This document shows, in pieces, positions 4,766 to 63,770 of a stretch of DNA of 64,000 nucleotides. Under the pieces are notes generated by a model that searched no databases, was not told the DNA's origin, and saw nothing but the letters and a program-made list of their open reading frames with translations. The DNA lies in NCBI GenBank assembly GCA_976551045.1, contig CDPCPM010000151.1, forward strand, positions 3,100,001-3,164,000, in the 5' to 3' direction. This stretch comes from Glaucostegus cemiculus. Taxonomy: Eukaryota. Within the stretch, counting starts at the first letter, position 1; the number at the start of each line of letters is the position of its first letter. A program made the position numbers and the translations under genes.

Positions 4766-5405
4766 GAAACACAAGAAAACAGGTGCAGAAGTTGGCCACC
4801 AGGACCCTCAAGTCTGCCCCACCATTCAATATGATCAAGGCTGATCTCTGTTGCCTTATCTCTTCTGTGCTAGTTCCCCATAACCCTCAAATGCACAATA
4901 TTAAATATATCTGATGATTTGGCCTCCATCACCCTCGGGAGTGGAGAATTCCAGAGATTCACTGTTTCCTGAGAGGACAAATTTCTACACACCTCAGTTT
5001 AAAATGACCAGACCCTTATTTTGCACCCATGTCTCCTTGTTCGTGACTCTCCCACCAATTAAAACATTTCAACGTCTACCCTGCCAAGCCCTTTAGGATC
5101 TTGTACATTTGAATAAAGTCACTCCTCATTCATGAAAACTCAAGAGACACAAGAAATGCTGCAGATGCTGGAATCTGGAGCAATACACAAAAAGTGCTGG
5201 AGGTACTCAGCAGGTCAGGTAGCATCCATGGAGGGAAATAAACAGTAGACATTTCAGGCCAAGACCCTTCATCAGGACTCTCAGGAATACTCAAGCTGTC
5301 CAGCCTCTCTTGATAGGACAACCCTCTCATCCCAGGAATTAACCCAGTAAAACTCTTTAGAACTACTTCCAATGCTACTATAACCCCTTTAGGTAAGGGG
5401 ACCAT
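4766..5405 (-). mobile_element. CR1 LINE 3' fragment interrupted by a hammerhead-bearing repeat
   Basis: Minus-strand translation includes FTGLIPGMRGLSYQERLDSL (CR1 ORF2 C-terminus); interrupted at ~5143-5279. Confidence 0.85.
5143..5279 (-). ncRNA. Penelope-like non-autonomous repeat with minimal hammerhead ribozyme (copy A)
   Basis: Minus strand 5279-5243 reads AGTC-CTGATGA-AGGGTCTTGGCCT-GAAA-TG-TC-TACTG, followed by the family tail gatgctacctgacctgctgagtacctccagcac. Confidence 0.75.
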
Positions 5406-5754
5406 ACTGTGCCTTCAAGATCCTACATCTTGAAGAAATGCACAATCCTATATAATCAGTCAGTACTTTCATTGGTTCCTAAAGCTGCACCCTTCATTAA
5501 AAATTAGTTGCTATTCTGACGTCTGTTTTCCTGTTTCAGTTGTTTATTTGTACAGTAATATTGGTTTGAGCTCACTTCCTGCACAAAATGAACTGATGCC
5601 TGTTAAAGAATAGAGCCTTTGAATTAGACACATGATAATAGATAGAAATCCAACCACATGGGGTGATGGAAAGAGGCTTTCAGTCAACAATTTCAGTTGC
5701 CTTCGAATTCTACATTTCAATTAAGTTGCAGCTGGTCAATACCTCAATACCATT

Positions 5755-6027
5755 TACTCACCTTTGCTAAAGAACCTTTGATGCACTCACTGAAAATCTA
5801 CCAACATATCTTGAAAATCTTAGCTGATCCAGCCTTCTGGTGGATTGACTTTCAGACTTCAAGTGTTTTGAAAGGTGCTTCCAGATTTCATCTCTAAATG
5901 ATCTAGCTAGTTTTCAAGATTGTTTTTTTTCACTGTGGACTCACCTACAATAGGAAATTGTTTCTCTGTATCTACTCCACCATATCCCCTCATTACTTTA
6001 AAGATCCAAATACAATCATCACTCAAA
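5755..6027 (-). mobile_element. Old, highly diverged CR1 3' fragment
   Basis: Residual similarity to the other minus-strand CR1 ends (aaaatctacc..., gtttctctgtatctactc). Confidence 0.55.
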
Positions 6028-9000
6028 GCGCACTTTGAAATATTGCTGCAGCAAAGCCTCTTAATGTGAAACAAACCATGAACTAGAATGAAATAGCACC
6101 TTATACAATTAAATTACTGCTCACTGCACTGTGGAAACTCTGGGCACTGATTTCTCATTGTTTACCTATTAAATAACAAAGCAAACCAGTGTCTTGAGTT
6201 ACAAAGCATTTAGGGAAAATGAGCCCATCTGTGGCTATTAAGGCTACTTGGGTGGTTAAGTATAGGTCAATTAATTCCATCTACCAGCTCAGCACTAAAA
6301 GAACTTAGAACATTTTATGTGTATTAATTTACCACAAGTGGGAATTAAAACTACTCAATGGAACATGGAATGCAACTGTGCAAATTAAACATTTTAACAA
6401 CAGAAATGAGACGATTTGGTTCTTGGTACAAAGTCACACAACATTTCCATTTTAGTGAATTTTATTCAAACTATTTATTGGGGAGCAGATTAGCCAAAAT
6501 TGCAGATAGCACAACAGTTATTATTAGCATCTCCAGGGATGCATCTCCTGTTATTACCAGCCTTTTCTCTTGTAACGTGTTTCCCTTGGGCATAGAGTTT
6601 TCAGTATACTTACATTGCAGGACAGCAACAGCAGACATGCAAACATCATGATGGCAGTACGGACATTGATATAGAATCATATGACAGCATGACAAGATTT
6701 TACGTGACTGCATTATGTTATTGCCATATTGACTGTTTCATATTTAGTGTAATTTCAACAAACTTTAAAGAGCTTTTTAAACTGAAGCGTTCATTTTGTT
6801 ACTTTTACAATAATGCATATTTCAGAACATTAATCTTCCAAACCACCAAAGAACCACTCACACATACTTTTATATTTTTGTTTTTCAGTGTTGTTTCAAA
6901 TTGGACAGATTTACAAAACAGAAACTTTTTAATATTTCTATTTTGAGGCATTATTTAAGTTAAAAAATACTGAGTTTTGATAATTCATTTACTGTTTTTA
7001 GACCAGCAGTTTCTGACTTATTATCTATGCACCATATCCACGCTGCTTGGGGATATGAAAACATATTGAAATGAAATTTGATTATAAAAAGGCCAAGGAG
7101 AAAGAAAATATCTAATATTGAAATAATTGTGAGAGTTAAATTCACAATGGCCAAATTCAGACAGTTCTTAAATCCTTTGTAGATTATATAAGATATATAA
7201 CATTTGCAGATTATCTTCTTCAAGTAAAATAGTGGGTAGCAGCATGAAATCTTCAAGCCAATGCATAAAATCACCTCTAATGTCATATATAAATAGATAA
7301 AGCAAAAGGCAAAAGCAGATGGGAAAAAGATGGAGATTTTTTTTCAGTGTCTCTTGTACTTCGTCAGAAAAAAGCTTTGGAGCCTTCAATGCTGTGCACA
7401 GTGTTATGATAGGTTTCTAATTCATGAGCTCTATTTCCACTTCTGGGCGGAAACTTGACAAAGTAAATATCTGACCTCTATGCGACTGATAGTGGAAAGG
7501 CTTGACCAATTATAGCAGTCCCCACCCAACAGGCTTTTGAGAACTTTCCAATCGAAGTGAATGGGCAAACTTTTTTGAAACAGCTACCCAGCAGTTAAAT
7601 TCAGACATCGCGATGACTCGTGTCGTCACTTCTAACACAGGAAAATTTAAATTAATCATTAATCATCTTGCTGACCCTAGCTGTCGTTTGTGGCACGTCA
7701 ATATCGAAGCTGATGTTCAGGTTTGGTTTCAATACCAGATCAAGTCAATTACATCATTTGAGCTTTATTTGTATTCTTCAGGCTTTGAAGTTAAAACTAC
7801 AGTAACCATTTGGGTCAGAAAATGATTACTGAGCCCCTTGTTGGATTTTTAATGCATGCCACCTACCTCCCCCCACCCTCCATGCCCTCCAATACCTACC
7901 TGATCTTGCCACACAGAGGAAGTGAAAACTGAGACCTCTCAGGAGTTGAGTCTTCAGAATGAATGCAACACTAGAATATAGAGCTGATCAGTGTACTAGC
8001 AATGAGTTGGCAAAGAGTGTGAGCAAGAAAAATAAATAAATAAGACCAGGGAGCAGTCAGGGAAAGCTACCAGAGGCCAAACCCTGAAAATCCAAGTGGA
8101 AATAAACAATACAGTGTTAGTCAGTTTTAAGTTGAAAGTATTAAAAACACATACATTGCCATATTAAAACATACCTCTCTACCTTTGCTTTCTTCCACAC
8201 ATGTAGCTGAAGGGTTGAGCCATTTGTACCACCCTGCTTGAATATTGGACTGTAGCTAAGTGATTGTCTGACCTTTTAATGATCCTTCTCCTTTGGGTCG
8301 TGGCTTGGCCTCCAATTCATACTCCCCAGAGGAGATTGACAAGTCTGTTGTGGTGCAAACTGGTTTTCCTCTCATCCATGACGAATTATAATCAATTGGC
8401 CAAAAGTTTCATTATTTTGCATTTTGCTGACAAAATATTCAATACAAAGTCAAATTCAAAGACCGTGTATGTCAGATGCTGACAAAAGCTGTCTGGACGT
8501 AATTCCTGATGTGCTGCAGCTCTGGAAGATGAAAGAGCATCAATATTGTTTGCTCTTTACAGATGTGTGTTTTTCAATTCAGATGCCCGTCATTTCAGAA
8601 GCTTGAAATCCTATTACATAAAACTTCACAGTTTTCCCCTTGAAATGTTTAACTTCACCAGCATTAAAGATTAAGAAGTTATAAAAATAAATCAGCTGAA
8701 AATGTGTTACATTTTCAATCTTTAACAAGTAACTTACGGCTTATGCAAAGTGTCTGTAATTATTCAAGAGAATTAGGAACACTACATTTCACAGTGTTGA
8801 CTCAGACAATGATGTATGTATTAACTGCATTAAATTTACTTCTCTGAACAGAATGCTCCATTTTACCTAACACTGCCTTCTGCCTGGCTTAAGTTGCACA
8901 TGATCCACAATAATAAAAAGTGCAGCAATGTTTTCAAAGCACATCATGAAAAATGTACTTAATAGATGCTAAATATTCAAAAGAATATAAGATGGACTCT

Positions 9001-9162
9001 GTATTGCATTTCTTGTTGAATTTTCTTAATACTAAGAGAAAACCATCTAATGTTTATTCAGTCTGTCCATGAAATCTGTGTGGCAATGTTTTCACATCTG
9101 CATTTTCACTTGCAGGTAATTAAAAAAATACTTTTGGCATGGTGTTCTTTCCAGGAAGGTTA

Positions 9163-9290
9163 ACTCAGATGAAATATCATTGACCTGAAATGCTAAATCC
9201 ATTTACCTTTCCACAGATGCTGCCGAATCTGCTAAATGTTGCCCAGAATTTTCTGTCCTTATTTCAAATTTCTAAAATCCACCGTGTGTT
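9163..9290 (+). mobile_element. Hammerhead-bearing Penelope-like repeat, degenerate (copy B)
   Basis: CAGATGA-AATATCATTGACCT-GAAA-TG-CT followed by ccacagatgctgccgaatctgct; homologous to 59265 and 63632. Confidence 0.6.
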
Positions 9291-10673
9291 TCTTTATTTT
9301 TTCTGACTTTGATATATGACTATCATATTTTAAGAATACGTCTGCCAAATATGCTTCTGACACTTTCTGTGACATCCAATGGAACTGTGACAAGGACAAA
9401 ATGTGCCAGGATAAAATACAAGGAACTTCCATCCAGCTTTGTGCCATTTCCTGCCACAACATCATTGCCAGGGTATCTTGCCACTAGTGCTCTGACAGAG
9501 AGCAAAATTACTGATTTCATATAACATATCTTCAGTACAGAGAGCACTAAGTTTATAACACAAATGCTCCTTTAGCTGTTTTCAGTGTTAAATAACAACT
9601 TTGAACAGTGGGATTCAGAAGCCTTATATAAAGTAGGTGTGCAAACGTAATTAAGTGATTATAAATTCTGTAGAAATTACTGTTAATTTAAAATTAAACA
9701 CAACTCGTGCCAATAATTGAACACAGTATATATTATAGCCTCAGTGATCAGCAAAGCCTCTATCAGAGTCATTATTTTCTGCTTCTGCATTGATTTATTT
9801 TTAAATTACTGTAATAATGTAATTCTTTCCAGCCCAGCAGGTTCTTTTCTGCAGAAATATCACAATGAGATTAATCCAATGAACAACTTACTGATGATGA
9901 ACTCCTACCATCTGGCTAAACAGCACACACACTGTCACTTTTGACCTACCTAGTCAATCGAGGGTTAACTTTAAGAAGGTTTTCTATTGGTGTACAGTTG
10001 ACCCCAGCAGGCTTGTATTGTAGGTGATGCAGTTGTCGTGCACAACATGGTTCATTCCTTTTAGAACATTGAAATGTTCCATCAGACATTGTAGGAAACA
10101 TATTGCTGTAGTGAAAAATAAAATTTATAGTTCATTAAATCTGAACCAATAACGTCTGCAGAGTGTAAACAGTTACCATCTGTTACCCCAGTGGTACCTT
10201 ATGTTAAATGCCAGCCCAGACAAGAGAGAGGAAGCAATATTACCAGCATGGGTGAATGGATTAATGCCATCTATTGCAATGATTGAGGAAAAGCTACAAG
10301 AATCTGTGTTCAACTCAGTGGGATGTTTTCTCCTTCATTCTCTGTACATTCTGAGTAGTCTCAAGTAAGCCAGTGTTATTACTGTGTATTACCAAAGCTG
10401 TAAAATCCAGATTGTTCTGACACTTCTAACTTCACTCTCACTTTAGGGTTACAAATTTTGGGCCAATTCCATGATGTTAAGAAATGTGCCTAAATATTTA
10501 TCCCAGTATGGTAGTGCTGAATATACTAAGCAGTAGTGGCAGAATATTGTACTCAATAAAAGCAGAATTTTGAAGGCAGATTGCAATCCACAGCCACTGC
10601 AATTTAATGCTTAGTCCTGCCTACTGGGAAAGAGCTTCCAGGCAAAAACCTAGGCTATTTCAGTGTAATAACT

Positions 10674-11770
10674 TCAACCCTCTGTAGCCATTTTTGATCC
10701 TGCACATTGGAGCCTCCATACCACGTGGTGATGAAACCAGTCAGAATGCTCTCCATCATATATCTGTAGAAATTTGTAAGAGTCTTTGGTGACATACCAA
10801 ATCTCATCAAACTCCTAATGAAGTAGGCCTGCTGGTGTGCCTTCTTTGTGATTGCATCAATGTGTTGTGCCCAAGATAGATCCTCCGGAATGTTGATGCT
10901 CAGGAACTTGAAGCTGCTAATCCTTACCACCGCTGAGCCCTCAATGAGGACTGGTGTGTGTTCTCCTGACTTCCCTTTCCTGAAGTCCACTATCAATTCC
11001 TTGGTCTTGCCGACATTGAGTGCAAGGTTGTTGTTGCAATACCACTCAACCAGCCAGTCTATCTCACTTCTGTATGCCTCCTTGGCATTTGAACTGTGTT
11101 TAGCTGCACAGTCATGAGTGTAGAGAGAGTAGAGCAGTGAGCTAAGCATACATCCTTGAGGTGCACCTGTATTGATTGACAGCGAGGAGGAGATGTTATT
11201 ACTGATCAACACTGTCTGTGGTCTCCCAGTAAGGAAGTCAAGGATCCAATTGCAGAGAGAGGTACAGAGGCCCAGGTTTTGAAGCTTGTTCATTAGTACT
11301 GAGGGGATGACGGTGTTGAATGCTGAGCTGTAATCAGTAACAGCAGCCTGACGTATGCTTTGGTGTTGTCTAGGTGCTCCAAAGCCAAGTGGAAAGCCAG
11401 TGAGATTGTGTCAGCTACAGACCTGTTGTGGCGGTAGGCAAATTGCAGCGGGTGCAGGTCTTTGCTCAGGCAGGAGTTAATTTTAACCATGACCAACCTC
11501 TCAAAGCACTTTATCACAGTAGATGTGAGTGTTACCGGGCAGTAGTTGTTGAGCCTGCTCACCCTGCTCTTCTTGGGCACCAGTATTTGAAGCATTTGGA
11601 AACCTCCAAATGCAACAGTGAGAGGTTGAAAGTGTCCTTGAACGCTCCAGCCAGCTGGTCAGCTCAGACTTTCAGCACCCTGATACCTTGCAAGGGTTCA
11701 CCCTCTTGAAGGATGTTCTGACATCGGCCTCCAAGACAGAGATCGCAGGATTGCCAGATGCTATGGGGAT
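10674..11770 (-). mobile_element. Rex1/Babar-clade LINE, RT fragment
   Basis: ORFs 11293..11595 and 10655..11293: [83 protein letters not shown]. Confidence 0.92.
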
Positions 11771-12327: not shown

Positions 12328-12817
12328 GGGGTCAGGCAAGAAAGCCCCTCAGGTGTTGTAAATATGGGATTGGGGTATCAGCCCAGGGAGCCACACGGGT
12401 GGCATCGGTGCTGTTTTTTTTTATCTGTACGTATAAAAATGTAACACTAAGAATGGATCTGTACACGAATGTAATGGTGGGAACGGTTTCTCGCATTATT
12501 ATTGTATATAGTTTTGTTTTATGATTAAAGTATATTTTGTAATAAAAAAATTTGGGAAGGATGACAGCCTAGGATTCTTCTGCCACAGGAGAGGAAGGGG
12601 CAGGGTCAGGCAAGGAAGCCCCTCAAATGTTGTAAATATGTGATTGGGGTACCAACCCAGGGAGTCACACGTGTGGCATCAGTGCTGTGTTCTGTACATA
12701 AAAAAAGGTAACACTAAGAATGGAACTGTACACGAATGTAATGGTTTGAACTGTTTTTTTATTATTGTATATAGTTTTTTTTTATCATGAATTAAGTTTA
12801 TTTTGTTTAAAAAAAAT
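12328..12817 (+). mobile_element. Two tandem Tx1/L1-like LINE 3' ends
   Basis: Two homologous units (12328-12550 and 12551-12817), each ending in an AATAAA-like signal and A run. The second starts with LGRMTA-stop, similar to the LWGKAT end of the Tx1-like ORF2 at ~15020. Confidence 0.7.
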
Positions 12818-13034: not shown

Positions 13035-13293
13035 ATTTTTTTTTAGGTTTTTTTACTTACAGCGTGGTAACAGGCCCTTTTGGCCCAACGAGTCCACGCC
13101 ACCCATTTTAAACCCCAAATTAACCTACCCGTACGTCTTTTTTTTAGAATGTGGGAGGAAACCGGAGCACCCGGAGGAAACCCACGCAGACACGGGAGAA
13201 CGTACAAACTCCTTACAGTCAGCGACAGGAATTGAACCCTGATCACTGGCGCTGTAACATCGTCGTGCTAACCGCTACGTTATCGTGCCGCCC
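13035..13293 (-). mobile_element. Young V-SINE with CR1-type tail
   Basis: Full head, V domain and tail, with many CpGs retained. Confidence 0.92.
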
Positions 13294-13862
13294 ACAAACA
13301 TTTTAACAACTTCTATTAAGTCACCCTTCAACCTCCTGCACTCTAGGAAAACAAACCCAGGCTATCCAATCTCTCTCCATAACTAAGGTCCTTCAATCCA
13401 GGCAACATCCTGGTGAATCTCCTCTGCACTCTCCCCAGTGCAATCACATCCTTCCTTGTAGTGACCAGGACTGCACGCAATACTCCAAAACTGGTCTAAC
13501 CAGTATTTTGTAGAGTTGCAACATAATGTCCCAATTCTTATTTTCCATGCCCTGACTTATAAAGGCTAGTATTCCATATATCTTCTTCACTACTCTATCA
13601 ACTTGTGTTGCCACTTTCAGCAAACTATGGCCTTCAACCCCTGGACCTCCCTGTTCATCAACATTACTTAATGTATATGTCCTAACCCATCCAACTTCCC
13701 AAAATGCATCATTTTGCACTTGTTGGGATTAAATTCCATCTGCCAACATATGGCCAACTTTCTAGTTGACCTATGTCCTGCTCTAATCTTAGACAACCTT
13801 CCTCATTATCCACAACATCACCAATGTTTGTGTCATCTGCATACTTACTAATCATACCTCCT

Positions 13863-14160
13863 GGGCAGGCACAGTAGTGTATCATTAGCATAACACTATT
13901 GCAGTGCCAGCAACCTGTGTTCAATTCCCACCTCTGCAAGGAGTTCCATATATTCTCCCTGGGTGTCTGCGTGGGTTTCCTCCGGGTGCTCCGGTTTCTT
14001 CCCACATTCTAAAGACATATGGGTTAGAAAGTTGTGGGCATGCTACATTAGTGCTGGAAGCATGGTGAACTTGCAGGCTGCCCCCAGAATATCCTACACA
14101 AAAGATGTATTTCACTGTTTGTTTCGATGTACATGTGACTAATAAAGGTATCTTATCTTA
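13863..14160 (+). mobile_element. V-SINE with Rex1-like tail ending in (ATCTT)n
   Basis: Same head and V domain as 4476, then gttgtgggcatgct...tttcactgtttgtttcgatgtacatgtgactaataaag..tatcttatctta. Confidence 0.92.
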
Positions 14161-14469
14161 CATTCACAACCAGGTCATTAGTATAAATCACAGACAGCAA
14201 AGCTTCCAGCACTGATCCCTGTGGTACACCATTGGTCACAGACTCGATCATCCTTCCACCACTATCCCCACTTGCCCCCCACCCCCAGCCATCCTATCAC
14301 CAAGCTAATGTTGGATCCTATGTGCCTTAACCTTCTGGACCAGCCTACCATTCAGGATTTGTCAAATGCCTTACTAAAGTCCATGTAGACAACATCTAAC
14401 CCCTTTCATTCATAAATTACCTTTGTTCTATCAAGGATATATATAATCCAAGATCCCAAGACGTTATTT

Positions 14470-16777: not shown

Positions 16778-17493
16778 CTGAAAGAGACAGAAGATATCCA
16801 GGGGCACATTGGCACTGCAGATACCGATTGTTACTCTGGAACCTAGAGCTGTGTGATCTTCCCACACACGGAGATGGAAATGAACGTTCCTTTAAAACTG
16901 TAGACTTGTACATTGTCAGTAAATCTAAATATTCAGATGCAACAGGACTGAGCCAAATTCTCACATGAAGTGTTGGGTGGAAATCATGATAGATTGCCAG
17001 AGAGTTTTCAAGGTTACTAGATTTTTATACATCCATTTTCAGACTTTTCTATTTGTTGACTATTCACGTTTTACCTTCTACATCTATTAACAAAAACACA
17101 TTTCCTGCCACAATAGCATTGCCTGCCTTTGGTTTAGTGTCTTTAGGAAGTCAGAGCAGGAAGTTACATATATAAATTATATAAAGATTTCCAGCATGCC
17201 CATGGTAAGTAATATGGTAATACTTACCAAGAGAATTTTATACTTTTAATAATTGCAGATTATTGGAAGAAAGTTACAGAGGCCTTTGGAGAATGTCAGT
17301 ATTTGCAAGTTACCTACACATTAAAATCTAGTAGGGATTACCTTAAAGTACTGTGGAGTTTCAGGTAATGTGATTATTTGAAGTCATTATGATCCAGGCA
17401 GCTACATAAAACTAGAGCCTGTTTAAGAGTGAAACAGAGTTGACAGGCCTTGGGCATTGTATATAAGAGTTCCTTTAAGAAGCATGTACCACT

Positions 17494-17597
17494 TGGTCTT
17501 GAAGAAGGGCCCTGACCCGAAATATTGACCACCTGCTTTTCTCCACAAATGCTGTCTGGCCTGCTGAGTTCCTTCAGAATCACTGTGTTTTTCATGT
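17494..17597 (+). ncRNA. Hammerhead-bearing Penelope-like repeat (copy C)
   Basis: TGGTC-TTGAAGA-AGGGCCCTGACCC-GAAA-TA-TT-GACCA (17494-17531) with a perfect 5-bp stem I, then the family tail. Confidence 0.72.
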
Positions 17598-17843
17598 ACT
17601 ATTTGGTATGAGGTTGATGCATTGTTGCACCAGATATTGCTGACCAGCTGAGATTTACTGCCTTCAATAAAGGGTGTTCTCTTGATGACTCAACCTTTGT
17701 TTTTTGTTTATGCAAACAACACCAAAGAGCCCGCGTGCACTGTAGATATCTACCTGACTCCTCTTTGCAACCTTGATAGGGGAAACCAGAACTTTGTCTA
17801 CACATGTCCAGGGCTCAGCTTACAAGATCCAAACATGAAATTT

Positions 17844-17942
17844 AGTCCTGTTGCAAGGCTTCGACCCAAAACATCAATAATTCCTTTCCCCCCACAGATG
17901 CTGCTTGACCCACTGAGATCCTCCAGCAGATTGTTTGATGCA
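17844..17942 (+). mobile_element. Hammerhead-bearing repeat, core degenerate (copy D)
   Basis: AGTC-CTGTTGC-AAGGCTTCGACCC-AAAA-CA-TC then ccacagatgctgcttgacccactgag. Confidence 0.62.
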
Positions 17943-19539
17943 ACATAATTAAACCACTGTTTTTAAAATTACACCATTTGATGCTAGAGGATAAACCTTA
18001 AGAACATTTGTTAGGAATTCCATTTTTGTCCATTTAATGGAGTAAAATGGTTGTCAAAATATTTTATGGCATTAATTTAGGGTCTTTCAGAGCTTGGGCA
18101 TTTCTATGTACCTTTGTTAACTGATTACTCCAGCAGCATCTTAGAATCACTAAATAAGCTTCTCAGAGATAGTGAAATATTAATATTCATAACATGCCTG
18201 TAGCTTTTACCAGGATTAACAAGATTAAAATTGTGGCTCCAAAAATTCCATATTTTTTTCAGACGATTTCATACTCATATTGCTTGATGACATTTGTGTC
18301 AGTGTAAAGCTGAACCTACAAAATGTGGGAAGGTTTTAAAAATTCAGACTACTTGCTGGTGGTTTTGTCTCCATCTTTTCACATTAGTATGACGCAAAAT
18401 TATTTTCTGTTCAACAAATTACAAGCATAAACTTTCTTGTGAATGAAAGAATCACTTGTTTTTCCTGATTAGTAATTTTTGAATGTGTATTGTTTTTGCT
18501 GTTTGAGCAGCCTGCATGTGCCATATAATTATCATCAGTATTGCAGGTTAACTAGTTAAAGTATCCTGCCCAAAGCAATCACAGGATCATTGAATTTACA
18601 ACATAGAAAAGCTCTGCATATGTTAACTCTGAAAAAGCTATCTGTTTAGTCCCATTAAGAAAAAAGTCATCCATATCCCTTTTAAAAATAATAATCTATT
18701 TATCTTCATTCATTTGTCAGGTATTGTACATTCTACCAACATGCTACCTGAAAGAATCTTCTAACATTGTATTTGGTAGTTATTTTGAATTTATGTTAAG
18801 TCACTAATTAATAATTTCTTTCTATATCACTTTATCAAGAACCCTCACAGTAATAAATGCTCCATTAGGTCACTCAATTTTCTTCCCTCTCAGGAAAAGT
18901 GCCTCAGAAGAAAATGATACTCATTTGCATGTTAAAGAGGACTCTTGGGGCAAGGTTCTACCAGAATCTCTTCAAAAGGATACCTCAGAGTGCTTTGACT
19001 TGACAAGGTGAAATATGATTTCAACATGGTGCAGTGCTGAGACAAGAAAATAGAAATGAAATCTCAATCAATCTAGCCAAATGCTTACCCGAAACACTGA
19101 ACACAGAGGATGATTCACCAAAGATATTAGCCTGGATTTTGGGGCTCACTCTGTTGTACTTTCACTTATGCATTATTATTTGTCATTAGTGTCAAAATAG
19201 TCCAACTCCTTCCAAGAGAAATCTTGGACCATTTAAATTCATTGGCATGATTCTCAACCAATCAAATTCAAAAGCTCTTCCTGAGAAATTCAGGGTCTTG
19301 TTAATTATAGTATTTAATTCAATGTGAAATTTGTAAGATAAACAGAGGGAATGAGAAAGGAAAATAAAAGAGAAAGTTTAAAGAACTGTCCTAGTTTATC
19401 AATGTTTAAAAAAATCTTCAACAATAATTAGATACTGGAGAAATGAGACTCCACACTTATGAAAGTTAAATTTCAAAGACTGATAGGTAGTTTGACAGTA
19501 ATTAAGCCACAACAAGATGATAAAAATTCACTTGTGATT

Positions 19540-20989: not shown

Positions 20990-21395
20990 TTGGTAAATTG
21001 GTTTATTATTCTAACATGTACTGAGGCACAGTGAAAAACTTTGTTTTGCATGTCATCCAAATGGGCCATTTTATCATAACAGTGCAATGAGGTAGTACAA
21101 AAGAAAACAATAACAGAATGCAGAATGAAGTGTTACAGTTACAGAGAAAGTGCAGTACAGACAAACAATAAGGTACTAGGCCATAATAAGGTAGATCGTG
21201 AGGTTAAGAGTCCATTCTTATCATACTTGGGGACTGTTCAATAGTCTCATAACTCTGGGATAGAAGTTGTCCTTGAGCCTGGTGATATGTACTTTCAGTC
21301 TTTTGTATCTTCTGCCTGATGGGAAAGGGGGGAAGAGAGAATGTCCTGGGTGGGTGGGGTCTTTGGTTATGTTGGCAGGGAGAAGTGTAGACAGT
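20990..21395 (-). mobile_element. Rex1-type LINE 3' end
   Basis: Reverse complement of the 3' end seen at 35355-35880 (ggtttattatt..acatgtac..cacagtgaaaaactttg). Confidence 0.8.
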
Positions 21396-24329: not shown

Positions 24330-24990
24330 TGCAAATGGCAGAAAGCTTTGGGATATTGAGAGTATGAGTTCTTTGCCACAGGACACCCAGCCTCTGAGCT
24401 ATTTTTGCAGCCATACTATTTTCATGGCTTGTGCAGTCGTATTTCTGATCACTGTTGAACTTCAGGTAGGTGTTCAGTGATGGCAGTGCCATTCAACGTC
24501 AAGGATGGGGGCTGAGACTCTCTCTTACTTGAGATGATCTTTGCCTACAACCTGTCTGGTGAAACTGTTAACCATCACCCCAGACAATGTTTAAATGTTC
24601 TTAGGCATTGTTGCATGGCAGTATGGACTATTTTGTTAACTGAGGAGCTGCATGAGGAATCATCAGTGAATATCCCCACCTTATGATAAAGGGAAGGCAA
24701 AGCAAATGAAGATGATTGGGCCTCAGACACTGCACTAAGGAACTTCTGCTGTGAAGCCCTGGGGCTGAGAGGGTTATCCTCTAATAAGCCCAACTATCTT
24801 CTTCCAATAAACCCTATCACCTTTCTTTGTGTAACATACAATTCCATCTATTGCAGAGTCTTATCCTTAGTTCTTATTGACTTCAGCTACACTATGGCCT
24901 ATTATTTAAATACTACCTTGATGTCCAGGGCAGCCACCCTCAACTTGCCTCTGGCTGATGTTTGGGTTTGGACAAGGTTCTGGCAACATG
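24330..24990 (-). mobile_element. Old CR1-group LINE remnant
   Basis: Minus-strand RT remnant (VGIFTDD); related pieces at ~26280-26395, 32510-33170, 41620-41830 and 44190-45045. Confidence 0.55.
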
Positions 24991-25404
24991 TAGCTCTGAT
25001 TCTCCACTCTGTAGACCAGTCTACCAAAGAGTTCTACCTATATCTGCATGTAGTCACCCTCTCCCTAGGTGAAAGAGGCTAGAAATTCCCTCTTCGATAA
25101 TAGGCCTTAAGTAGCAGGTGAGAAGTGGGTCACCTTTATGAAAGGTGATTGTGGAGGGACACACAGTATTGATACTGATGATGACCTTATTTTGGCTTGC
25201 GCCACAGGCACCTTGCTCATTTCCATCTACCATGTCTCCATAACCACATGTTTTCAGTCACATGTTTTGGCTCAGACACATTCAGGACAAGTGAGGGAGG
25301 AAGGGGTAAATCTTGATAGTCAGCTAGAATACTGCAGTCCATAACTTGTAGAGCACCAGGATACCAGAGGAGTGGGAATTTAAAAAGAACTTGTTACCTC
25401 TCCA

Positions 25405-25525
25405 GCAGAGGACATGGAAATACCAACTGTCATCATTTCAGGTCGAAACCCTGTGCCAGTATATATCCAGCAGTTCCTCCAGCAGACTGTTTGTTGCTCC
25501 AGATTCCAGCATCTACAGTCTCTTG
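25405..25525. mobile_element. Hammerhead-bearing repeat, inverted arrangement, degenerate (copy E)
   Basis: Minus-strand CTGGCAC-AGGGTTTCGACCT-GAAA abutting a plus-strand family tail (gttcctccagcagactgtttgttgctccagattccagcatc). Confidence 0.6.
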
Positions 25526-25650
25526 CATTCTTCATTCTGTTTTAATTTTCACTACCTTGATGTACTTATGTAAGGAATGATCTGTCTAGATGGCCCACAA
25601 ACAAAAGCTTCTCACAGTATCTTGACACATGACAAATATAAACCAATTGC
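25526..25650 (+). mobile_element. Rex1-type 3' UTR remnant
   Basis: Similar to 35755-35875 (tgatctgtctagatggc..caaacaaaagcttctcacagtatc). Confidence 0.6.
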
Positions 25651-32769: not shown

Positions 32770-33016
32770 TTTAAATTAAAATTTTTACATTTTATTTACA
32801 ACATGGTAACAAGCCCTTCTGGCCCAATGAGTCTGTGGTGCCCATTTTAAAGCCAAATTAACCTACCTGAATGTCTTCAAAATGTGGGAGGAAACCGGAG
32901 CACCAGGAGGAAACCCATGCAGACACGAGAGGATGTACAAACTCCTTACAGTCAACGACGGGAATCGAACCCCAATCGCTGGCGCTGTAATAGTGTCGCG
33001 CTAACCGCTACACTAC
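32770..33016 (-). mobile_element. V-SINE with CR1-type tail
   Basis: Same structure as 13035-13293. Confidence 0.9.
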
Positions 33017-33349: not shown

Positions 33350-34393
33350 AGGAGGATGTTCTTTCAGGGGCTAGCCACAATATTCAGGTCTCTTGGCACT
33401 GTGACTGACTCTGAGACTCAGAGGGAAAGGGTGCAGTCAGACAGGACGATAGCAACAGGAGACTCAGTAGTGAGAGGGAACAGACAGGAGCTTTTGTAAC
33501 CGGAGATGCCAGGATGGTGTATTGCCTCCTGGGTGCCAGGGTCAAGGATGCCTCTGAGCAGCTGCAGAAAATTCTCGAGCGTGAGGGTGAAGAGCCAAAA
33601 GTTGTTGTCCATGTTGGTACAAATAACATAGGTAGAACAAGGGATGAGGTTCTGTAGAATGAGTACAGGGAGTTCGGTAAGAAGAAGCAGAACCTTGAGG
33701 GCAGTGATCTCCGGATTATTCCCAGCGCCATGTGCTAGTGAGGTCAGAATAGAAAGATAGGTCTGATGAATGTGTGGCTGAGGAGCTGCTGCAGGGGGCA
33801 GGGATTCAGGTTCTTTGACTATTGGGATCTCTTCTAGGGTAGAGGCAACCTATACAAGAGGATAGGGGTTGCAGTTGAACCACAGAGGGACCAATATCCA
33901 TGCAGGGAAATTTGCTAATGTTACACGGGAGGGTTTAAACTAGATTGACAGGGGAGTGGGACTCTGAGCAGGAGCAAGTCATGGGATAAAGCAGTAGCCA
34001 GCGAGAGCAAGTTTAGTAATCAGAATAGTCAGGGACACAATAAAAGCAAGGAAAGGAATACCTGTTAAACTGCATTTATTTCAATGCACAAGATTTAACA
34101 GGTAAGGCAAACAAACAGAGTGTGGATTAGCTCTTGAGGACTGGGATGTTACAGCCATAACAGAAATATGGCTGAGAGAAGGGCAGGACTGGCAGCTTAA
34201 TATCCCAGGGAACAGATGCTACAGTCATGACAGAGGTACAGGTAAGTGAGGAGGGGTTATTGCCTTTTTGGTAAGGAAGGACATAACTGCAGTACTTAAA
34301 GATGGCATTCTTGTGGGAATCGTCCAGTGAGGCCATATGTGTAGAACTTAGAAGCAAGAAGGGGAGGGTCACACCTGCGGGGCTGTATTATAG
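33350..34393 (+). mobile_element. CR1 LINE ORF1 (SGNH/GDSL esterase) and start of ORF2 endonuclease, decayed
   Basis: TGDSVVRG..CLLGARVKD..VVVHVGTNNIG (esterase), then AITEIWLREGQDWQLNIPG..SEAICVELRSKKG (AP endonuclease). Confidence 0.85.
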
Positions 34394-34394
34394 A

Positions 34395-34587
34395 CATGGG
34401 TTTCCTCGGGGTGCTCCAGTTTTCTCCCACACTCCAAAAAACGTACAGGTTAGGAAGTTGTGGGCATGCTATGTTGCCGCCAGAAGCATGGTGACACTTG
34501 CGGGCTGCCCCCAGAGCACTATGCAAAAGATGTATTTCACTGTGCATTTCGGTGTATATGAGACTAATAAAGAAATCTTATCTTATC
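34395..34587 (+). mobile_element. 5'-truncated V-SINE with Rex1-like tail
   Basis: Starts in the V domain and ends aaatcttatcttatc. Confidence 0.88.
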
Positions 34588-35354
34588 CATGCCGTAATCA
34601 TCTATGACTCTATGGTTGAGGCAGCCAGGCTCACAGGAAAGACTTCTGGTCCGGGAAGGTGTTGCTCCATTGTGAAATAACCCTTGAATCCTGTCTCCTT
34701 GGTACAACTTCATGGAGAAGCACAGTGGGAATAGAAGGTAGGGAGAGTGTGAAGTGAGGAAAAGAAAGCAAGAAGATGGGGAAGAACCATAGCTAAAATA
34801 AATAAATCCTTAAATGGATGGGAAACAATCAAATAGGCATTAGTTCTGACATGTGAATATATGTGCTCTCTCAGCTTTGGTAGTCAGACCGCCTTCTATT
34901 TACACAGTTTCCTCTGCAGTCATTGACTGGAAAATAAACACTTTGAAGCAGCTCAACATTGCTATTCTTTTGTTGACACAGACCACTTGACTGGAAACAG
35001 CATCAGACTTTTTCATACCTGTCTTTTTCAGCAGAGACCACTAAAGCTACAGCCAGAGAATGAAAATGCAGTTTACTCAAAAATCCATACCAGAGTAGGG
35101 TGACAAAGAGATAGCAGGACAGCTAGCAATTGGTATTTGATTGGCTTGGGGGTAATCGGGAGCCCACTGGGACATCAACAAAGGATTTGGCCCCGTGATT
35201 TCCTATTCTGCTTACAACCACGATGTGTGGTATCACGTGAACAAAACCAGTCCAAATAATGTGCTGTCAGGAGACTTTACATTTTGGTGTTCTTCATTTT
35301 AAGGACTTTTTAGTGCTAAATGGCAAAATGTACTTTGTATTTTTAATTCATTAT

Positions 35355-35880
35355 AGATACATCATAGAAAATATCCTAGCCAGATATATTACAGCTTGGT
35401 ATGGCAACTGTTCTGTCCGGGACCACAAGAAACTGCAGAATTATGGACACAGCTCAGCACATCATGAAAAACAGCCTCCCCTCCATGGACTCTGTCTATA
35501 CTTTTCGCTACCTCGGTAAAGCAACCAAGATGATCAAGAACCCCATCCACCCAGGACGTTCTCTCTTCTCCCTTGTCCCATCAGGCAGAAGATACAAAAG
35601 CCTGAAAGCATGTACCACCAGCTTCAAGGACAGGTTCTATCCTACTGTTATAAAATGATAAGATGGACTATTGACCTCACACTCTACCTCGTCGTGGCCT
35701 CGCACCTTATTGCCTAGCTGCACTGCACGTTCCCTGTAACTAATGCTATATTCTGCATTCTGTTATTGCTTTTTCTCGTACTACCTCAATGCACTGAGGT
35801 GATGAAATTATCTGTACGGATGGCATGCAAAACAAAGTTTTTCACTGTATTTCGGTACATGTGGCAACAATAAACAAACT
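35355..35880 (+). mobile_element. Rex1-type LINE 3' fragment
   Basis: IENILARYITAWYGNCS..HPGRSLFSLVPSGRRYKSLKACTTSFKDRFYP, then a 3' UTR ending aataaac. Confidence 0.88.
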
Positions 35881-36717
35881 TAGCATCAAAGACCTGTAGC
35901 CACATAAGTGGATGCAGAGTAATAATGCTCATAAAGGCATGGCAATCTGGGCCCCTTCAAAAGTTGGGAACTACTTTGTTCAATATATGGTCATGAATTC
36001 TACCTGAAAATACCACAGCAGTGGGTTTTACAGTCCTTAAATTATCATACCACAATCAAACCATTAAATCTTGCTGACAGAGTTTTTATGTGTACAATCC
36101 AATTTCAGACAAAAAATAAATAAATTTACATCAAATAAACATGATTTAAGATATAAGTTTTAAAATATGAATAGATTGGTGTATTCCTTTTAGCTCATGA
36201 CAATCTTTGACTTCAGCAGACGTAGTGAACTAATTACATAAACGTTGCCTTTTAATGGAGACCTTCAGTGAATTGGGTTGTAATTAAGACCCCACAGAAT
36301 CAGAGTTCTTCATCTTATCTTGTGGATGCAGAATGTAAGTATTTTTGCAGCTAGTGTAGCATGGAAAAATAAATCACAGTGATTAAATCACAGTGACGTA
36401 AAGATTCATTTCTGAGTAACATTAAATTGTTTGATATTGCAATTAAAATGAGCTGACAGTTGGTTCTGCAATTGATAACATCAGCTAACTCTGTTTCATT
36501 GTGACATTAAGCCAATGGTATTGGAACATTGTGATTCCATTTCATGACAGTCATTGCACAGCAAAATTTTTCCTCTATCACATCAATTTGATTCATCACG
36601 GTGGTCTCAGGAAAACTGGAAACATGATCCCACTGCTGCAAAAACCCAACAGCAAGGAATGTCGGCAGGGAAGAATGTTTATTGCTGCTGAGATTAGATA
36701 TTTCCCCAGTGCTGATG

Positions 36718-37723: not shown

Positions 37724-38089
37724 CATTTGAATAATTTGATTAGCAGGATAAATGTAATAGTCTACAAAAATGGTCAGAAAGATCACAGTATGCAACTAAC
37801 CCACAGCCATTCAATCCACCAAGGTAGCACAGCCATTAAGATGACCCTGACCTCCAACTAGAAATAACCATCCTGCTCATTGTGTGGATATTTCAGTGTA
37901 GGGCACGGGGAATTCATGTTGTAAGCAGCTTGTACCGGTTAAAGACGGTCTGCATCTCTTGAGAATTGTTGGATCAGAGGGTATTTTACAGTTGAAGAAT
38001 GGTGCAAGACAACAAGCTAGTATGACAATGTAGTATTGGAGGCAGTCCAAAGGAGATTCATCAGGCAAATTCCTGGGATGAGAGGTTTG

Positions 38090-38573
38090 TGCAGGGAATG
38101 TGCAAGAACATAAGAAGCTGCAGAGTGTAGTGGACTCGGCTCAACATATCACAGGCACATCCTTCCACACTATCAGAAGTATCTACATGAGACTCCGCCT
38201 CAAGAAGGCAACATCTATCATTAAAACCCCCCACCATCCAGGTCATGCCATCTTCTCGTGGCTACCATTAGGTAGGAGGTAACAGAAACTTGAAGTCTCA
38301 CACCACCAGATTCAAGAACAGCAACCATTTGCTTCTCAAACCAATCTGCACAACCCTAATCACTACCTCAGTACAGCAACACAATGACCATTTTGTACTA
38401 CAATGGAGTTTTTTTTGTTCTAATTGTGTTCTTATGGATATAATTTTGTTTAATTTATGTTTGACATGTTTTTCTTGTGAATGTTGTTTATTGAATTTTA
38501 TGTGCCTGTGATGCTGCTGCAAGTAAGTGTTTGTGCATATGACAATAAATTCAACTTTGACTTCGACTTTGAC
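38090..38573 (+). mobile_element. Rex1-type LINE 3' fragment
   Basis: KKLQSVVDSAQHITG..HHPGHAIFSWLPLGRR; ends aataaa plus a (GACTTT)n-like tail. Confidence 0.85.
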
Positions 38574-38981
38574 ATTGTGCTGTCTAGAGGTTAGACAGTT
38601 TGGGTCTGTATTCCCTGAAGTTTACAAAAATGAGGGGTGACCATATTCAAATATATGAGCTACTAAAGGGCTTTGGCAGTATAGATGCTGAGATGTTTTC
38701 ACTAGTAGAAGAGTTACAAACAGGGGACAAAGGTGCAAAATAAGGGGACGCTTATTTAAAACTGAGATGTTTAGAAATTTCTTCTCTCAAAGGGAAGTGA
38801 ATCTCTGCAATTCTCTGCCCCTGAGGGAGGTGGAGGCCAGATTATTTTAAAAGATGGAGATAGGTAAGTATTTGAAAGATCAAGGAATTGAGAGTTTTGG
38901 GTATCTGGCATAGAAGAGGAGATGAGGCAGCATAGATCAGCCATGATCGTACTGAATGGCAGTGCAGGTTTGAAGGGCCTG

Positions 38982-40339: not shown

Positions 40340-41420
40340 CAGCCTAAATATGCAGATGACGCATATCTTTGCAGAGGGCAAGCTCCAAGCTGTTGTTGAC
40401 TCATTCATTGACAAATACACGAAGGTCTTCGACTAACCTATCCCCACTGTATAACACCATCCACTCGCAATAAAGGTTCAGAGAAAGAATCTGCAAAATG
40501 TGGACCACTTCTCATACTTTGGGAGCCACCTATTGGCAAAGACAGACATCGATAATAAACCTAACCATTGATATCAGTGTGCTAGCCCAGCCTTTAGTCG
40601 GTTAAGGAAAAGAAATGTTTGAAGAACAAAACCTCAGGTCTGTACACAACTTACGATTTACCAGGAAATAATGATTCCTGACCTCCTACATGCTTCAGAG
40701 ACCTAGAATGGTTACAGCAGGCACCTGAAGACACTGGAAAGATACCAACAATGTTGTTTCTGCAAAATCATTCAAATTCACTCGAAGGATGAGCGAACTA
40801 ATGTCAGTGTCCTCCCCTGCGCTGACATTGAAGGTCTAGTTCCACCCAGTTAAAACAAGTAATTTACATGCAGCAAATAATTTGCTGGAGGAACTCAGCA
40901 GGTCAATAAGCATCTGTTGGGGCCAAGGAATTGTCAATGTCTCAGGTCCAAACCCTGCATCCCCAATTCGTCCCCAGCCCCCAGCCCCAACCCCACACAC
41001 ACAGATACTGGTCAACCCACTGAATTCCCCCAGCAGATTGTTTGTTGTTCCAGATTTCAGTATCTGCAGTCTCCAAGTCACTTACATGCTCAATACCAAG
41101 TGCTTGAAACAGACCGTCTATTTTGAGCTGTCAAGGAAAAAGATTACCAGCTTGACAGATGAAAAGATTTAAGGTTATATCCAAAGCTTCCATAAAAAAT
41201 GACCACAAAAATCCCTGGTCCACCACTGCTCAAAGTGGAGAATAAGAATTCAGGGTGGTATTGGGAACTTCAAAGTCATGCACCAGGAGCACATAGAAGT
41301 CCTATATGTGGCAAAAGGAGCAGGCCATCTCACAAACTGCCCACCCATCCATCCTGCTGGCCACCTCTTCCCCATCTGTAGGAAAGTTCCCACATTAACC
41401 TCATCAGCCACTTCACATCC
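40340..41420 (+). mobile_element. RTE-clade LINE remnant
   Basis: KYADD (tatgcagatgac ~40349) and homology to 20200-20900; split by a foldback repeat at 40869-41073. Confidence 0.8.
40869..41073. mobile_element. Foldback (inverted) hammerhead-family repeat (copy F)
   Basis: Two inverted arms (35/48 identity by hand) around a degenerate core GATGC-AGGGTTTGGACCT-GAGA-CA-TT-GACAA on the minus strand. Confidence 0.68.
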
Positions 41421-41422: not shown

Positions 41423-41617
41423 TAACATAAAATATAAGATATATTTATTAGTTACATGTATATTGAAACACACAGTGAAAGGTATCTCTTGCATAGAGTG
41501 TTCTGGGGGCAGCCCGTAAGTGTCGCCATGCTTCCAGTACCAACATTGTATGCCCACAACTTCCTAACCCATACATCTTTGGAACTTGGGAGGAAACTGG
41601 AGCACCTGGAGGAAACC
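41423..41617 (-). mobile_element. 5'-truncated V-SINE with Rex1-like tail
   Basis: Reverse complement of 34395-34587-type sequence. Confidence 0.88.
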
Positions 41618-44370: not shown

Positions 44371-44683
44371 GATAAGATAAGATAAGATAAGATAAGATAA
44401 GATAAGATAAGATAAGATAAGATTGAAACACACAGTGAAATGCATCCTTTGCGTAGAGTGTTCTGGGGGCAGCCCACAAGTGTTGCCACACTTCCAGCGC
44501 CAACATAGCATGCCCACAACTTCCTAATCCGTATGTCTTTGGAATGTGGGAGGAAACCAGAGCCTCCCGAGGAAACCCACGCAGTCAAGGGGAGAAAGTA
44601 CAAACTCCTTACAGAAGGTAGCTGGAATTGAACCCAGGTCACTGGTGCTGTAAAGCATTACACTAACCGCTACACTACCGTGG
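44371..44683 (-). mobile_element. V-SINE with tail expanded to (GATAA)10
   Basis: Full head and V domain; 44371-44420 is ten GATAA units. Confidence 0.92.
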
Positions 44684-47565: not shown

Positions 47566-47709
47566 NNNNNNNNNNNNNNNNNNNNNNNNNNNNNNNNNNN
47601 NNNNNNNNNNNNNNNNNNNNNNNNNNNNNNNNNNNNNNNNNNNNNNNNNNNNNNNNNNNNNNNNNNNNNNNNNNNNNNNNNNNNNNNNNNNNNNNNNNNN
47701 NNNNNNNNN
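47566..47709. other. Assembly gap (144 N)
   Basis: Run of N. Confidence 1.
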
Positions 47710-49009: not shown

Positions 49010-49318
49010 GGGCAGGCATGGTAGTGTAGCAGTTAGCATAACGCTATTACAGCACCAGCGACCCAGGTTCAATTCCAGCCACTGTCTGTAAGGAGTTTAT
49101 ACATTCTCCCCATGTCTGCATGGGTTTTCTCCAAGTGCTCTGGTTTCCTCCCACATTCCAAAGAAGTATGGGTTAAGAAGTTGTGGGCATGCTACGTTGG
49201 CGCCAGAAGCGTGGTGACACTTGCAGGCTGCCCCCCAGAAGACTCTACGAAAAAGATGCATTTCACTGTGTGTTTCCATGTACATGTGACTAATAAAGAT
49301 ATCTTATCTTATTTTATC
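49010..49318 (+). mobile_element. Full-length V-SINE with Rex1-like tail
   Basis: B-box-like ggttcaattcc, V domain, tail gatatcttatctt. Confidence 0.93.
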
Positions 49319-49399
49319 CACCTTGTTCCTTCCCGGCAAGTCCACAACTACTCCTTGAGAGAAAAGGTCCCAATGAAAAGAAATGTTAAAAATAAATAA

Positions 49400-59264: not shown

Positions 59265-59645
59265 AATTCTGATGAAACGTCTTAGTCCTGAACTGTTAGC
59301 TCTGTTTCTCTTTCCACACAGCACATTAGAGTAGCAGTTAGCATAATGCTATTACAGTTCCAGCAACCCAGGTTCAATTCTGCCGCTGTCTGTAAGGAGT
59401 TTGTACATTCTCCCGGTGTGTCTGCGTGGTTTTCCTCCGGGTGCCCCAGTTCCCTCCCACATTCCAAAGACGTACAGGTTAGGAGCTGTGGGCATGCTAT
59501 GTTGGCACCAGAAGAGTGGTGACAATTGCGGGCTGCCCCAGCACATTCTCTCAGTAACGCAAAAAGATGCATTTCTCTGTGTTTCGATGTACATGTGACT
59601 AATAAATAAATATCTTAAAATGCTGCCTGATCTGCCGAGTATTTA
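59265..59645 (+). mobile_element. Hammerhead-bearing repeat (copy G) split by a V-SINE
   Basis: CTGATGA at 59269, AACGTCTTAGTCCT-GAAC-TG-TT-AGCT, then tccacaca [SINE] atgctgcctgatctgccgagtattt. Confidence 0.68.
59321..59617 (+). mobile_element. V-SINE with Rex1-like tail
   Basis: Head, V domain and tail gtacatgtgactaataaataaatatctta. Confidence 0.92.
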
Positions 59646-61818: not shown

Positions 61819-62498
61819 TCAGAATCAGAATCAGAATCAGTTTTTATTGTCACAACCATATACATACATAGTATGCATAGGAGCGAGATACCGTCCTCCT
61901 CAGGTGCTCGTCCCATAAAATAACATAACAACCAACAGAGACACACATACACACTTGACAGAATAAACATTACAAAACATTAAACATTAAAAGCTACGGA
62001 AGTTAAAATTAAATTAGTACGCAGATTAAATTAAAAATGGCCAGTAAATAAATTAATAGTTATTAAAGTGAATGGGCTGGTGTCGGACATTTAAAGTGCT
62101 GGTGCATTTCTGTGCACCTAGCATCTCTTAGTGTTAACAAAGGAAGATGGAGGGATGAGAGAGTTTGCAGTTCTGATGGCTTGCAGAAAGAAGCTATTGT
62201 TCAGCCTGGTCGTTCTTGCCCTGATACATTTAAGCCTCCTCCCTGATGGCAAAATTGTGAAGAGGTGATGGGAGGGGTGAGAAGGGTCGGCCATTATGCT
62301 TTTGGTCTTCCTCACACAACGGTCTTTGTATATGTCTGCGAGGGATGGAAGCGAGACACCTATGATCCACTCCGCAGCCCTAACTATCTTCTGGAGGGAC
62401 TTCCGCCCAGCAGCTGAGCAGCTTCCAAACCAAACAGTGATACATTGAGTTAGGATGCTCTCAATAGTCCCCCTATAGAAGGTTTTCATGACGGAGGG
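61819..62498 (-). mobile_element. Young Rex1/Babar LINE 3' fragment
   Basis: Uninterrupted 123-aa ORF 62118..62489 (FYRGTIESILT..HPSHHLFTILPSGRR..TTRLNNSFF) and a (CTGATT)n tail. Confidence 0.9.
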
Positions 62499-63631
62499 TC
62501 ACTGATGCATATTCCTGCAGCAGTGAGGTTTTGTCAATCCTCAAAAATACTGATGGAAAAATAACCTATAAAGAATTGAAAAGTCAAAATTGAAATGAAA
62601 TCTAGACATGCAAATTAATCCTTGAACAAATGAATCATCCAGCCACTCAAAATGTGGGAATGCCTTTGAAAAAGGCTAATTAAAAATGGACACAAACCTC
62701 ATCATCAGGGACTGGATGAATCAGACTGGGAAAAATAAACAGCTCATCTGCCAATATGCAATTCCATTTCCATTTAGATTCCCCTCTGAACCCAGTAATG
62801 TTTTTTACTCTCCAAAAAACTTGTTCAACAAGCATGAGATTGTCTGAGTCCAACTCATCTTGACAGCTGCTGAACATGTTTCTGTGTGATTGGCAGAAGG
62901 TAAATAATTGCAGCACAGAACTGGTCACATCAAAGTTTCTGTCCTCCTCTGGGCCAATGGAACAATCTTTTCTTTTTGTTGTTATTATAATTAACAATGA
63001 GCAACTTTTGATTATTCAAGAGGAAGGAATCATTCAGTATTTCTAAATTTCAACTCATGCTGCACATCTTCAATTGACTCAATTGATGTCATTTGATTTT
63101 CTTTGTACCAAGAGAAAAAATGACTTCCAGTAGAATGTCACAGCAAGGGAGAGAACGGTATATTGGAAGGAGACATTATATCAGGCAAATACATTGTATA
63201 ATAGGGACAGTTTCATTACAAATTAAAGGGTATGAACAAAGAATGATGGCTCATTCTGATACACAAATCATTTTTGAAATAATTTATCCACCGTTCGTAC
63301 GAGGATGAGTCATGGGCCAATTCTTCTGAGGTTCCTTTAAAGAACTAGAGTTCTATTCATATTCAAATATTCAGAAGAATGATGTATCTTATTCAGAGAT
63401 GCTTATGATTCATCATGGTTCTATGTGAACCATATTTTGCTATTCATTGAAACTTCAAAAGATATAGCTGTAATGTGCCTCAATCTCAAATCAGTCGGTT
63501 AATTGAACTTACTGTAATAGATCGATCAGATCAGGTAATTCAATGTTATTTTGTTAAATAGAAAATTATTGTCAGCCATCATTCCACTCAGAGGTGTAAT
63601 CAGAAAATGCCAGAATTGATCAGAAACTCAA

Positions 63632-63770
63632 GCATCATGAAAGATCAGTGACCTGAAATGTTAACTCTGTTTCTCTCTCCACAGATTCTGCCTGACATGA
63701 TGATTATTTTCACTTTTCTTTTCTATTTTTATCTTAGGTTTAAACCATCTGTGGTATATTTGCCTTTGGA
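63632..63770 (+). mobile_element. Hammerhead-bearing repeat, degenerate (copy H)
   Basis: ATCATGA-AAGATCAGTGACCT-GAAA-TG-TT-AACTC then tgtttctctctccacagattctgcctgac. Confidence 0.62.

Follow-up and report, generated by a model that had tools for sequence, protein, structure and literature searches.

Short decayed repeats with a minimal hammerhead motif in Glaucostegus cemiculus, likely truncated 3' ends of a Penelope-like element

Eight loci of the window, i.e. the whole 64-kb stretch of Glaucostegus cemiculus DNA that was analysed, carry short and decayed repeats with a minimal type I hammerhead motif. We regard it as probable that these repeats are 5'-truncated 3' ends (pseudo-LTR pieces) of a Penelope-like element (PLE) that were inserted by target-primed reverse transcription (TPRT), and they are predicted to be inactive today. 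Since no ORF for a reverse transcriptase (RT) with a GIY-YIG domain is linked to the family in the window, we infer its membership in the PLEs from the anatomy of the insertions. The hammerhead truly belongs to the family as such rather than to single copies, because the reads of relatives restore its bases at copies C and D. This kind of motif has been described from 2014 onward, and the family is of a known kind. Newly described here are duplications of 15-16 bp, head-to-head pairs, two classes of 3' ends, and a common sequence upstream of copy C.

Family members are present at all eight loci of the original prediction. A repeat finder used without prior knowledge groups the eight loci in its families D14 and D17. 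Moreover, an nhmmer profile was made from seven segments, with the unseeded pieces serving as a recovery check and the reversed window as a control: the profile recovers the unseeded pieces E1 (E 8e-4) and E2 (2e-5) as well as both pieces of G (7e-3 and 0.014), and the top match in the reversed window has an E value of 0.79. The minus strand carries A, E1 and F1; the two parts of E, and likewise those of F, are inverted relative to each other, and a SINE interrupts G. The copies and their duplications are as follows:

5145 to 5280, minus strand: copy A, 136 nt, core 11/11, 34-nt tail, within a CR1-like LINE fragment
5275 (C3) and 5255 (G12), minus strand: core sites of copy A, predicted cleavage between 5248 and 5247
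5281 to 5295, minus strand: 5' copy of the target-site duplication of A, 15 bp, partner at 5130-5144, 2 mismatches, p 0.007
9162 to 9284, plus strand: copy B, decayed, of the B/G/H subfamily with its longer stem II and A-U closing pair, core 9/11
17483 to 17497, plus strand: 5' copy of the target-site duplication of C, 15 bp, partner at 17593-17607, p 0.007, source of TGGT
17496 to 17592, plus strand: copy C, 5'-truncated at stem I, core 10/11 with C3 lost, without tail, predicted cleavage between 17526 and 17527
17844 to 17941, plus strand: copy D, C9 subfamily, core 8/11, without tail
25405 to 25463, minus strand: E1, the half of locus E that bears the hammerhead, inverted, C9 subfamily, core 7/11
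25472 to 25530, plus strand: E2, tailed 3' part, head-to-head with E1
40856 to 40871 and 41074 to 41089: target-site duplication of F, 16 bp, p 0.002, enclosing F1, a C-rich filler and F2
40872 to 40961, minus strand: F1, inverted, 5'-truncated, without tail, C9 subfamily, core 7/11
40996 to 41073, plus strand: F2, 3' part with a 24-nt tail
59265 to 59321, plus strand: 5' half of copy G with the hammerhead, core 10/11, interrupted by a SINE at about 59327-59611
59619 to 59643, plus strand: continuation of copy G behind the SINE, nhmmer E 0.014
63632 to 63754, plus strand: copy H, B/G/H subfamily, core 9/11, 5' end decayed or truncated

In addition, a strongly decayed ninth fragment that comprises only a part of the tail is located between C and D (17631-17690, plus strand; E 3, read depth 10-40). 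The CR1-like LINE fragment that hosts A (5000-5420, minus strand) has flanks that match a second copy (38030-38090 and 38619-38746), and this second copy (38030-38746) is itself broken by about 530 nt.

One hammerhead layout had been proposed for all eight repeats. At the level of the family this holds: all loci are family members, and the layout is restored by the reads of relatives. The single copies, in contrast, are decayed: they have kept 71 of 88 core bases, all 11 are intact in only one copy (A), a strict scan for CTGANGA..GAAA matches the same number of copies (1/8), a search of the window against Rfam gives no match with an E value of up to 1, and the ACGT palindrome is intact in none of the eight copies. 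Moreover, the layout CTGANGA-A fails in D, E1 and F1, which read ..GC-A or ..AC-A. Two features are constant: an unpaired A is found between the first box (position 9) and stem II (10.1) in all eight copies, and two nucleotides always separate GAAA from UH, these being TG, CA or TA where the palindrome has CG. Stem II has a length of 4-5 bp in the family. The assignment to the minimal type I hammerheads of PLEs is supported, as the core, the unpaired A and the palindromic 15.2-16.2 agree with the definition of the min-HHR in the accessible text of PMC4209133. The retention of the core is similar to the majority identity of the tail (221/289), as expected for neutral decay, and the core counts and the loss of the palindrome agree with the earlier view that the copies are probably dead.

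The restoration of the hammerhead at the level of the family relies on reads that were mapped on positions 17470-17975 (C and D) at 80% likeness. One DNA run, two RNA runs and one contig set were used, all of relatives; the read evidence thus refers to C- and D-like subfamilies of relatives rather than to the window's own individual. At copy C, the read majority restores C3 (5,842/6,178) and the T of stem II (9,659/10,099 reads), and the C and the G of the palindrome are found in 73% and 69% of the reads, respectively. The majority of the C-type reads carries the full core at the positions listed. At copy D, the reads restore A6 (2,859/3,076) and stem II (91% and 90%). The tail is carried behind C by 6,815 DNA reads and behind D by 7,187. 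The family accounts for 55,510 of the 13,071,950 DNA reads (0.42%), and from the summed depth of the tail, one copy per 37 kb is obtained as a lower bound for the DNA of a relative. Thus, the proposal of a very abundant family with several subfamilies is supported. The reads also bear on the extent of the element: 5,205 DNA reads continue with a common sequence upstream of C before 17496 (agreement 0.83; 30 letters of upstream consensus), at a depth of 6,178 at C3. As most C-type reads extend into this common sequence, copy C of the window derives from a longer unit whose 5' part it lacks, and the non-autonomous nature that had been suggested for the element is not shown.

It had further been proposed that the two sides of stem I vary together between the copies. 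The pair TGGTC/GACCA in C is no covariation, as TGGT instead ends the target-site duplication at 17483-17497: only 18 reads span position 17495, as compared to the 5,205 reads that have the different common sequence before 17496. In A, the proposed stem AGTC/TACT is mismatched at its closing pair. A check of covariation over the eight decayed rows revealed 37 of 51 cells paired, and shuffles gave 36.7 on average (13 cells beyond the insertions omitted); covariation in a MAFFT alignment, with B, G and H one column out of register, was likewise not above that of shuffles. Between the subfamilies, two compensatory changes are found, which represent two events: at 2.1-1.1, B and G have U-A instead of C-G, and at 10.1-11.1, B, G and H have A-U instead of G-C.

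The anatomy of the insertions points to a PLE. Target-site duplications of 15-16 bp flank three of the eight loci (A, C and F; the p values given above are relative to 4,945 random pairs of the window), and they bound insertions of 136, 95 and 202 nt, respectively. The other five loci (B, D, E, G and H) have no significant duplication even with a wider search. Since F1, the filler and F2 lie within one 16-bp duplication, locus F is a single insertion. Head-to-head inverted pairs are present at two of the eight loci (E and F), and F has a tail on one end only. The 3' ends fall into two classes: C, D and F1 stop within about 3 nt of one homologous point, without tail, and the ends of A (34 nt), F2 (24 nt) and E2 (about 27-33 nt) are located 24-34 nt further; in B and H, the tail is decayed. 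The 5' ends differ among the copies: those of A, C and D are located 1-5 nt before C3, those of E1, F1 and H at or inside the first box, and E2 and F2 begin well downstream. The segments that bear the hammerhead all span the cleavage site, and none of the ten segments begins there. PLE insertions are known to be truncated at the 5' end, to have an inverted partner and to carry a tail at only one of their ends (accessible text of PMC8557442), duplications flank solo Penelope copies (PMC2377424, as far as accessible), and for a PLE of the anole the tail has been tied to two RT start sites, with uncleaved RNA as the main template (accessible text of PMC11167929). In agreement with the original prediction, no Penelope RT is present in the window: none of the 280 ORFs of at least 60 amino acids matches GIY-YIG, as is expected for copies that are stubs of 95-200 nt, and none of the five RVT_1 matches among these ORFs adjoins a copy in the upstream position of the element. 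Pattern scans for relatives of the family gave no match in viral contigs and none in either of two scans of metagenome contigs; a single match in a prokaryote genome has no hammerhead upstream and was taken as chance.

Six 5' ends (5280, 17496, 17844, 25463, 40961 and 63632) cluster at the 5' edge of the ribozyme and not at the cleavage site. This clustering may reflect stalling of the RT after the fold, the start of the transcript, or selection bias. It might also be taken to mean that at least some subfamilies (D/E/F, perhaps B/G/H) are short non-autonomous elements in their own right, about 135 nt long and beginning with the 5' arm of the hammerhead, for whose mobility a PLE protein would act in trans. 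A, C, D, E1, F1 and H all begin near this edge, the loose ends listed include no common upstream consensus for D, several strand-switch joints begin at 17844-17846, the 64 kb contain no PLE ORF, and non-autonomous elements derived from pLTRs have been described (accessible part of bioRxiv 10.64898/2026.07.22.740005). However, the common sequence upstream of C in 5,205 reads, relative to the depth of 6,178 at C3, and the variable 5' ends, with E2 and F2 starting well downstream, speak against a dedicated short element, and the clustering itself may result from the choice of loci in the original prediction and by the profile. Such an element thus appears unlikely as compared to truncated PLE 3' ends.

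The original prediction had also pointed to retrozymes, and the window might accordingly hold the dispersed monomers of a non-LTR retrozyme that self-cleaves, circularises and is reverse-transcribed in a rolling-circle mode. Dispersed derivatives of retrozyme monomers occur in Xenopus, retrozymes have been reported in one chondrichthyan (both in the accessible part of bioRxiv 10.64898/2026.07.22.740005), and our family is present in RNA, with 7,628 of 11,053,536 reads (0.069%) and 9,890 of 12,895,792 reads (0.077%) in the two runs. Yet this share of 0.07-0.08%, on both strands, is to be seen next to 0.42% in DNA (the organisms being different), and there is neither a pile-up of RNA begins or ends nor an RNA back-joint among the best 15 of 136 joints. 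A search of the window for tandem repeats gave ten rows, none of which falls on a copy, and the only neighbours on the same strand, C and D, belong to different subfamilies, are 350 nt apart, and have a duplication around C alone. With no tandem units, none of ten segments bounded at the cleavage site, and, according to the accessible text of PMC7229834, canonical rather than minimal hammerheads in retrozymes, we consider a retrozyme highly improbable, and the earlier suggestion is not upheld. The RNA libraries were ordinary and fragmented, so that ends can be lost and cleavage could be hidden; RNA-seq ends are likewise absent at the cleavage site of the PLE element of the anole (accessible text of PMC11167929). 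The RNA reads fit a passive read-through. Retention of individual copies by the host as working ribozymes in the transcripts of their loci is less probable still. In favour of such a role, copy A combines 11 of 11 core bases with a wobble-compatible palindrome; but it has the mismatch in the closing pair of stem I and no partner on the same strand within 20 kb. With -3.5 kcal/mol, its predicted hammerhead-like fold does not surpass the one obtained without constraint (-4.0), and two A copies fail to co-fold into a dimer in the model. Moreover, core bases are kept about as well as the tail (71/88 and 221/289). Truncated 3' ends of a PLE remain the preferred reading.

The C9 subfamily is the only unusual point of the family. 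In D, E1 and F1, core position 9 is a C, which is followed by the invariant A. The C appears to have become fixed in this subfamily, which has at least one copy per 625 kb, since no change from C to A at 15% or more is found among the differences listed in any of four runs (one DNA, two RNA, one contig set) and since the consensus of the loose ends before 17879 carries the same C (357 RNA reads, 259 contigs); reference bias may inflate this purity. It is tempting to speculate that the hammerhead of D, E and F is active and that its core, CUGAUG-C-A, is a new natural one: the A beside stem II would act as A9, the C would be bulged between G8 and A9, and this form would have reached the above abundance while retaining stem II, GAAA and stem I. 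We consider this quite unlikely. In the hammerhead, A9 pairs with G12, and its phosphate binds a metal near the scissile bond; given this role, a dead or slow ribozyme is more likely for the C9 form than a new active core. No instance of an A9C core was found in the literature searched, including PMC3088659 and supplement file 2 of PMC4209133, both as far as accessible; as Repbase lay outside the search, absence from print is not claimed.

Two further ideas concern the sequence downstream of the cleavage site. An ATG about 22 nt past this site might be the start of the PLE ORF; this was rejected, as its spacing to the tail is 16 nt in A, 15 nt in C and 14 nt in D, E2 and F2, so that the reading frame is not kept between the types. 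A search with the peptide of A for longer proteins gave five candidates, none of them scoring, which is weak evidence. Stretches at 9190-9222, 17876-17900, 59295-59321 and 63660-63690 resemble 3' splice sites, as branch-point-like bases lie at the cleavage site and a pyrimidine tract and CAG precede an ATG. The view that this is a conserved 3' splice site belonging to a retained intron of the PLE is not supported for the family as a whole: at 17547, G replaces the A of AG in 49% of the reads that cover C, and the 18 RNA and DNA read rows listed out of 971 contain no RNA-only loose end at the YAG-ATG point. In the B, D, F, G and H types, such a site may exist.

The window has a GC content of 40% and is rich in repeats, with LINE reverse-transcriptase fragments and several dispersed SINE and LINE families. 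An abundant SINE of about 300 nt, which we take to be HE1-like, is found at 4480-4640, 13140-13300, 13874-14170, 32870-33016, 34390-34596, 41430-41617, 44420-44653, 49015-49322 and 59327-59611; one of its copies splits G, another lies within a CR1-like fragment near 13870, and ARAGORN finds no tRNA gene. The longest LINE RT fragment (10658-11658, minus strand) has an ORF of 251 amino acids with matches to RVT_1 and ALKBH8_N and is of a non-CR1 type; related 3' pieces are located near 20990-21375, 35241-35885 and 62118-62498. Moreover, an 89-nt direct repeat (12329-12417 and 12603-12691) has copies that are 274 nt apart and 89% identical, and an assembly gap of 144 N covers 47566-47709. The ORFs of at least 60 amino acids show no host protein domains apart from a weak match to DUF7807 at 24690-25079, which is below the cut-off.

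The family shares many properties with the min-HHRs of the pLTRs of metazoan PLEs (Cervera and De la Pena 2014, PMC4209133, accessible text): both are of type I, lack helix III, are palindromic at 15.2-16.2, and have an unpaired nucleotide before stem II and a short helix I; moreover, both come in many subfamilies per genome, mostly as single motifs, with some close pairs on opposite strands. The min-HHRs in that text cleave weakly and only as dimers. As compared to them, stem II has 4-5 bp here but 7-8 in Schistosoma, B, G and H close stem II with A-U, and D, E and F have C at position 9. The abundance of at least one copy per 37 kb is far above the 4,000-9,000 motifs given there for coelacanth and Xenopus, those being matches to a strict descriptor, and no shark is named in the accessible text or in supplement file 2 of that paper. 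The anatomy of PLEs (Craig et al. 2021, PMC8557442; Poseidon of Anolis, Frangieh et al. 2024, PMC11167929; both as far as accessible) is common as well: 5' truncation, an inverted truncated copy, an optional tail of 30-40 bp on one end, a hammerhead near the 3' end, an uncleaved RNA template, and no RNA-seq ends at the cleavage site. The ORF of Poseidon_Ac begins inside the hammerhead (accessible text of PMC11167929), whereas the downstream 100 nt lose the frame between our subfamilies and no ORF is linked. With the non-LTR retrozymes (PMC7229834 and bioRxiv 10.64898/2026.07.22.740005, accessible parts), the family has in common a non-coding repeat, a type I hammerhead, kinship to PLE pLTRs and the presence in a chondrichthyan; retrozymes, however, form tandem arrays, mostly have canonical hammerheads and give circular RNA, whereas the copies here are solo or inverted and have a minimal hammerhead. 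Type I hammerhead repeats and PLEs have been reported in one chondrichthyan in the accessible part of the same preprint, and a literature search for a Penelope hammerhead of sharks or elasmobranchs gave nothing specific, Repbase being outside the search. The window copies are predicted from their decay to be inactive. To judge from its title, a paper by Lunse, Weinberg and Breaker reportedly describes numerous small hammerhead variants that are linked to PLEs and cleave as dimers.

We suggest the following course of events for the insertion of truncated PLE 3' ends. A PLE protein, presumably with RT and GIY-YIG domains, would bind the RNA of the element and nick the DNA. Reverse transcription would have two alternative start sites, separated by about 25-35 nt, and yield copies with or without tail; the two observed classes of 3' ends suggest these start sites, with the cause taken over from the anole PLE. 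Copying would then halt after 95-200 nt or switch strand, giving solo stubs or head-to-head pairs inside a duplication of 15-16 bp (A, C and F). The template was probably uncleaved RNA, since the copies span the cleavage site and none starts there. In the parent element, the hammerhead may, by analogy to other PLEs, cleave only as a dimer via the ACGU palindrome, weakly or helped by a protein. After insertion, the copies have decayed, and through loss of CpG the palindrome has disappeared from all eight.

These fish likely hold some of the largest hammerhead populations known. The insertions are a ready data set for the mechanics of PLE insertion, with two 3' ends, inversions and duplications. 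Moreover, the C9 subfamily offers a simple and cheap test of whether the hammerheads of PLEs need cleavage, and either outcome bears on this question: if the C9 ribozyme is dead and was amplified nevertheless, this would be in vivo evidence that the mobilisation of PLEs needs no cleavage.
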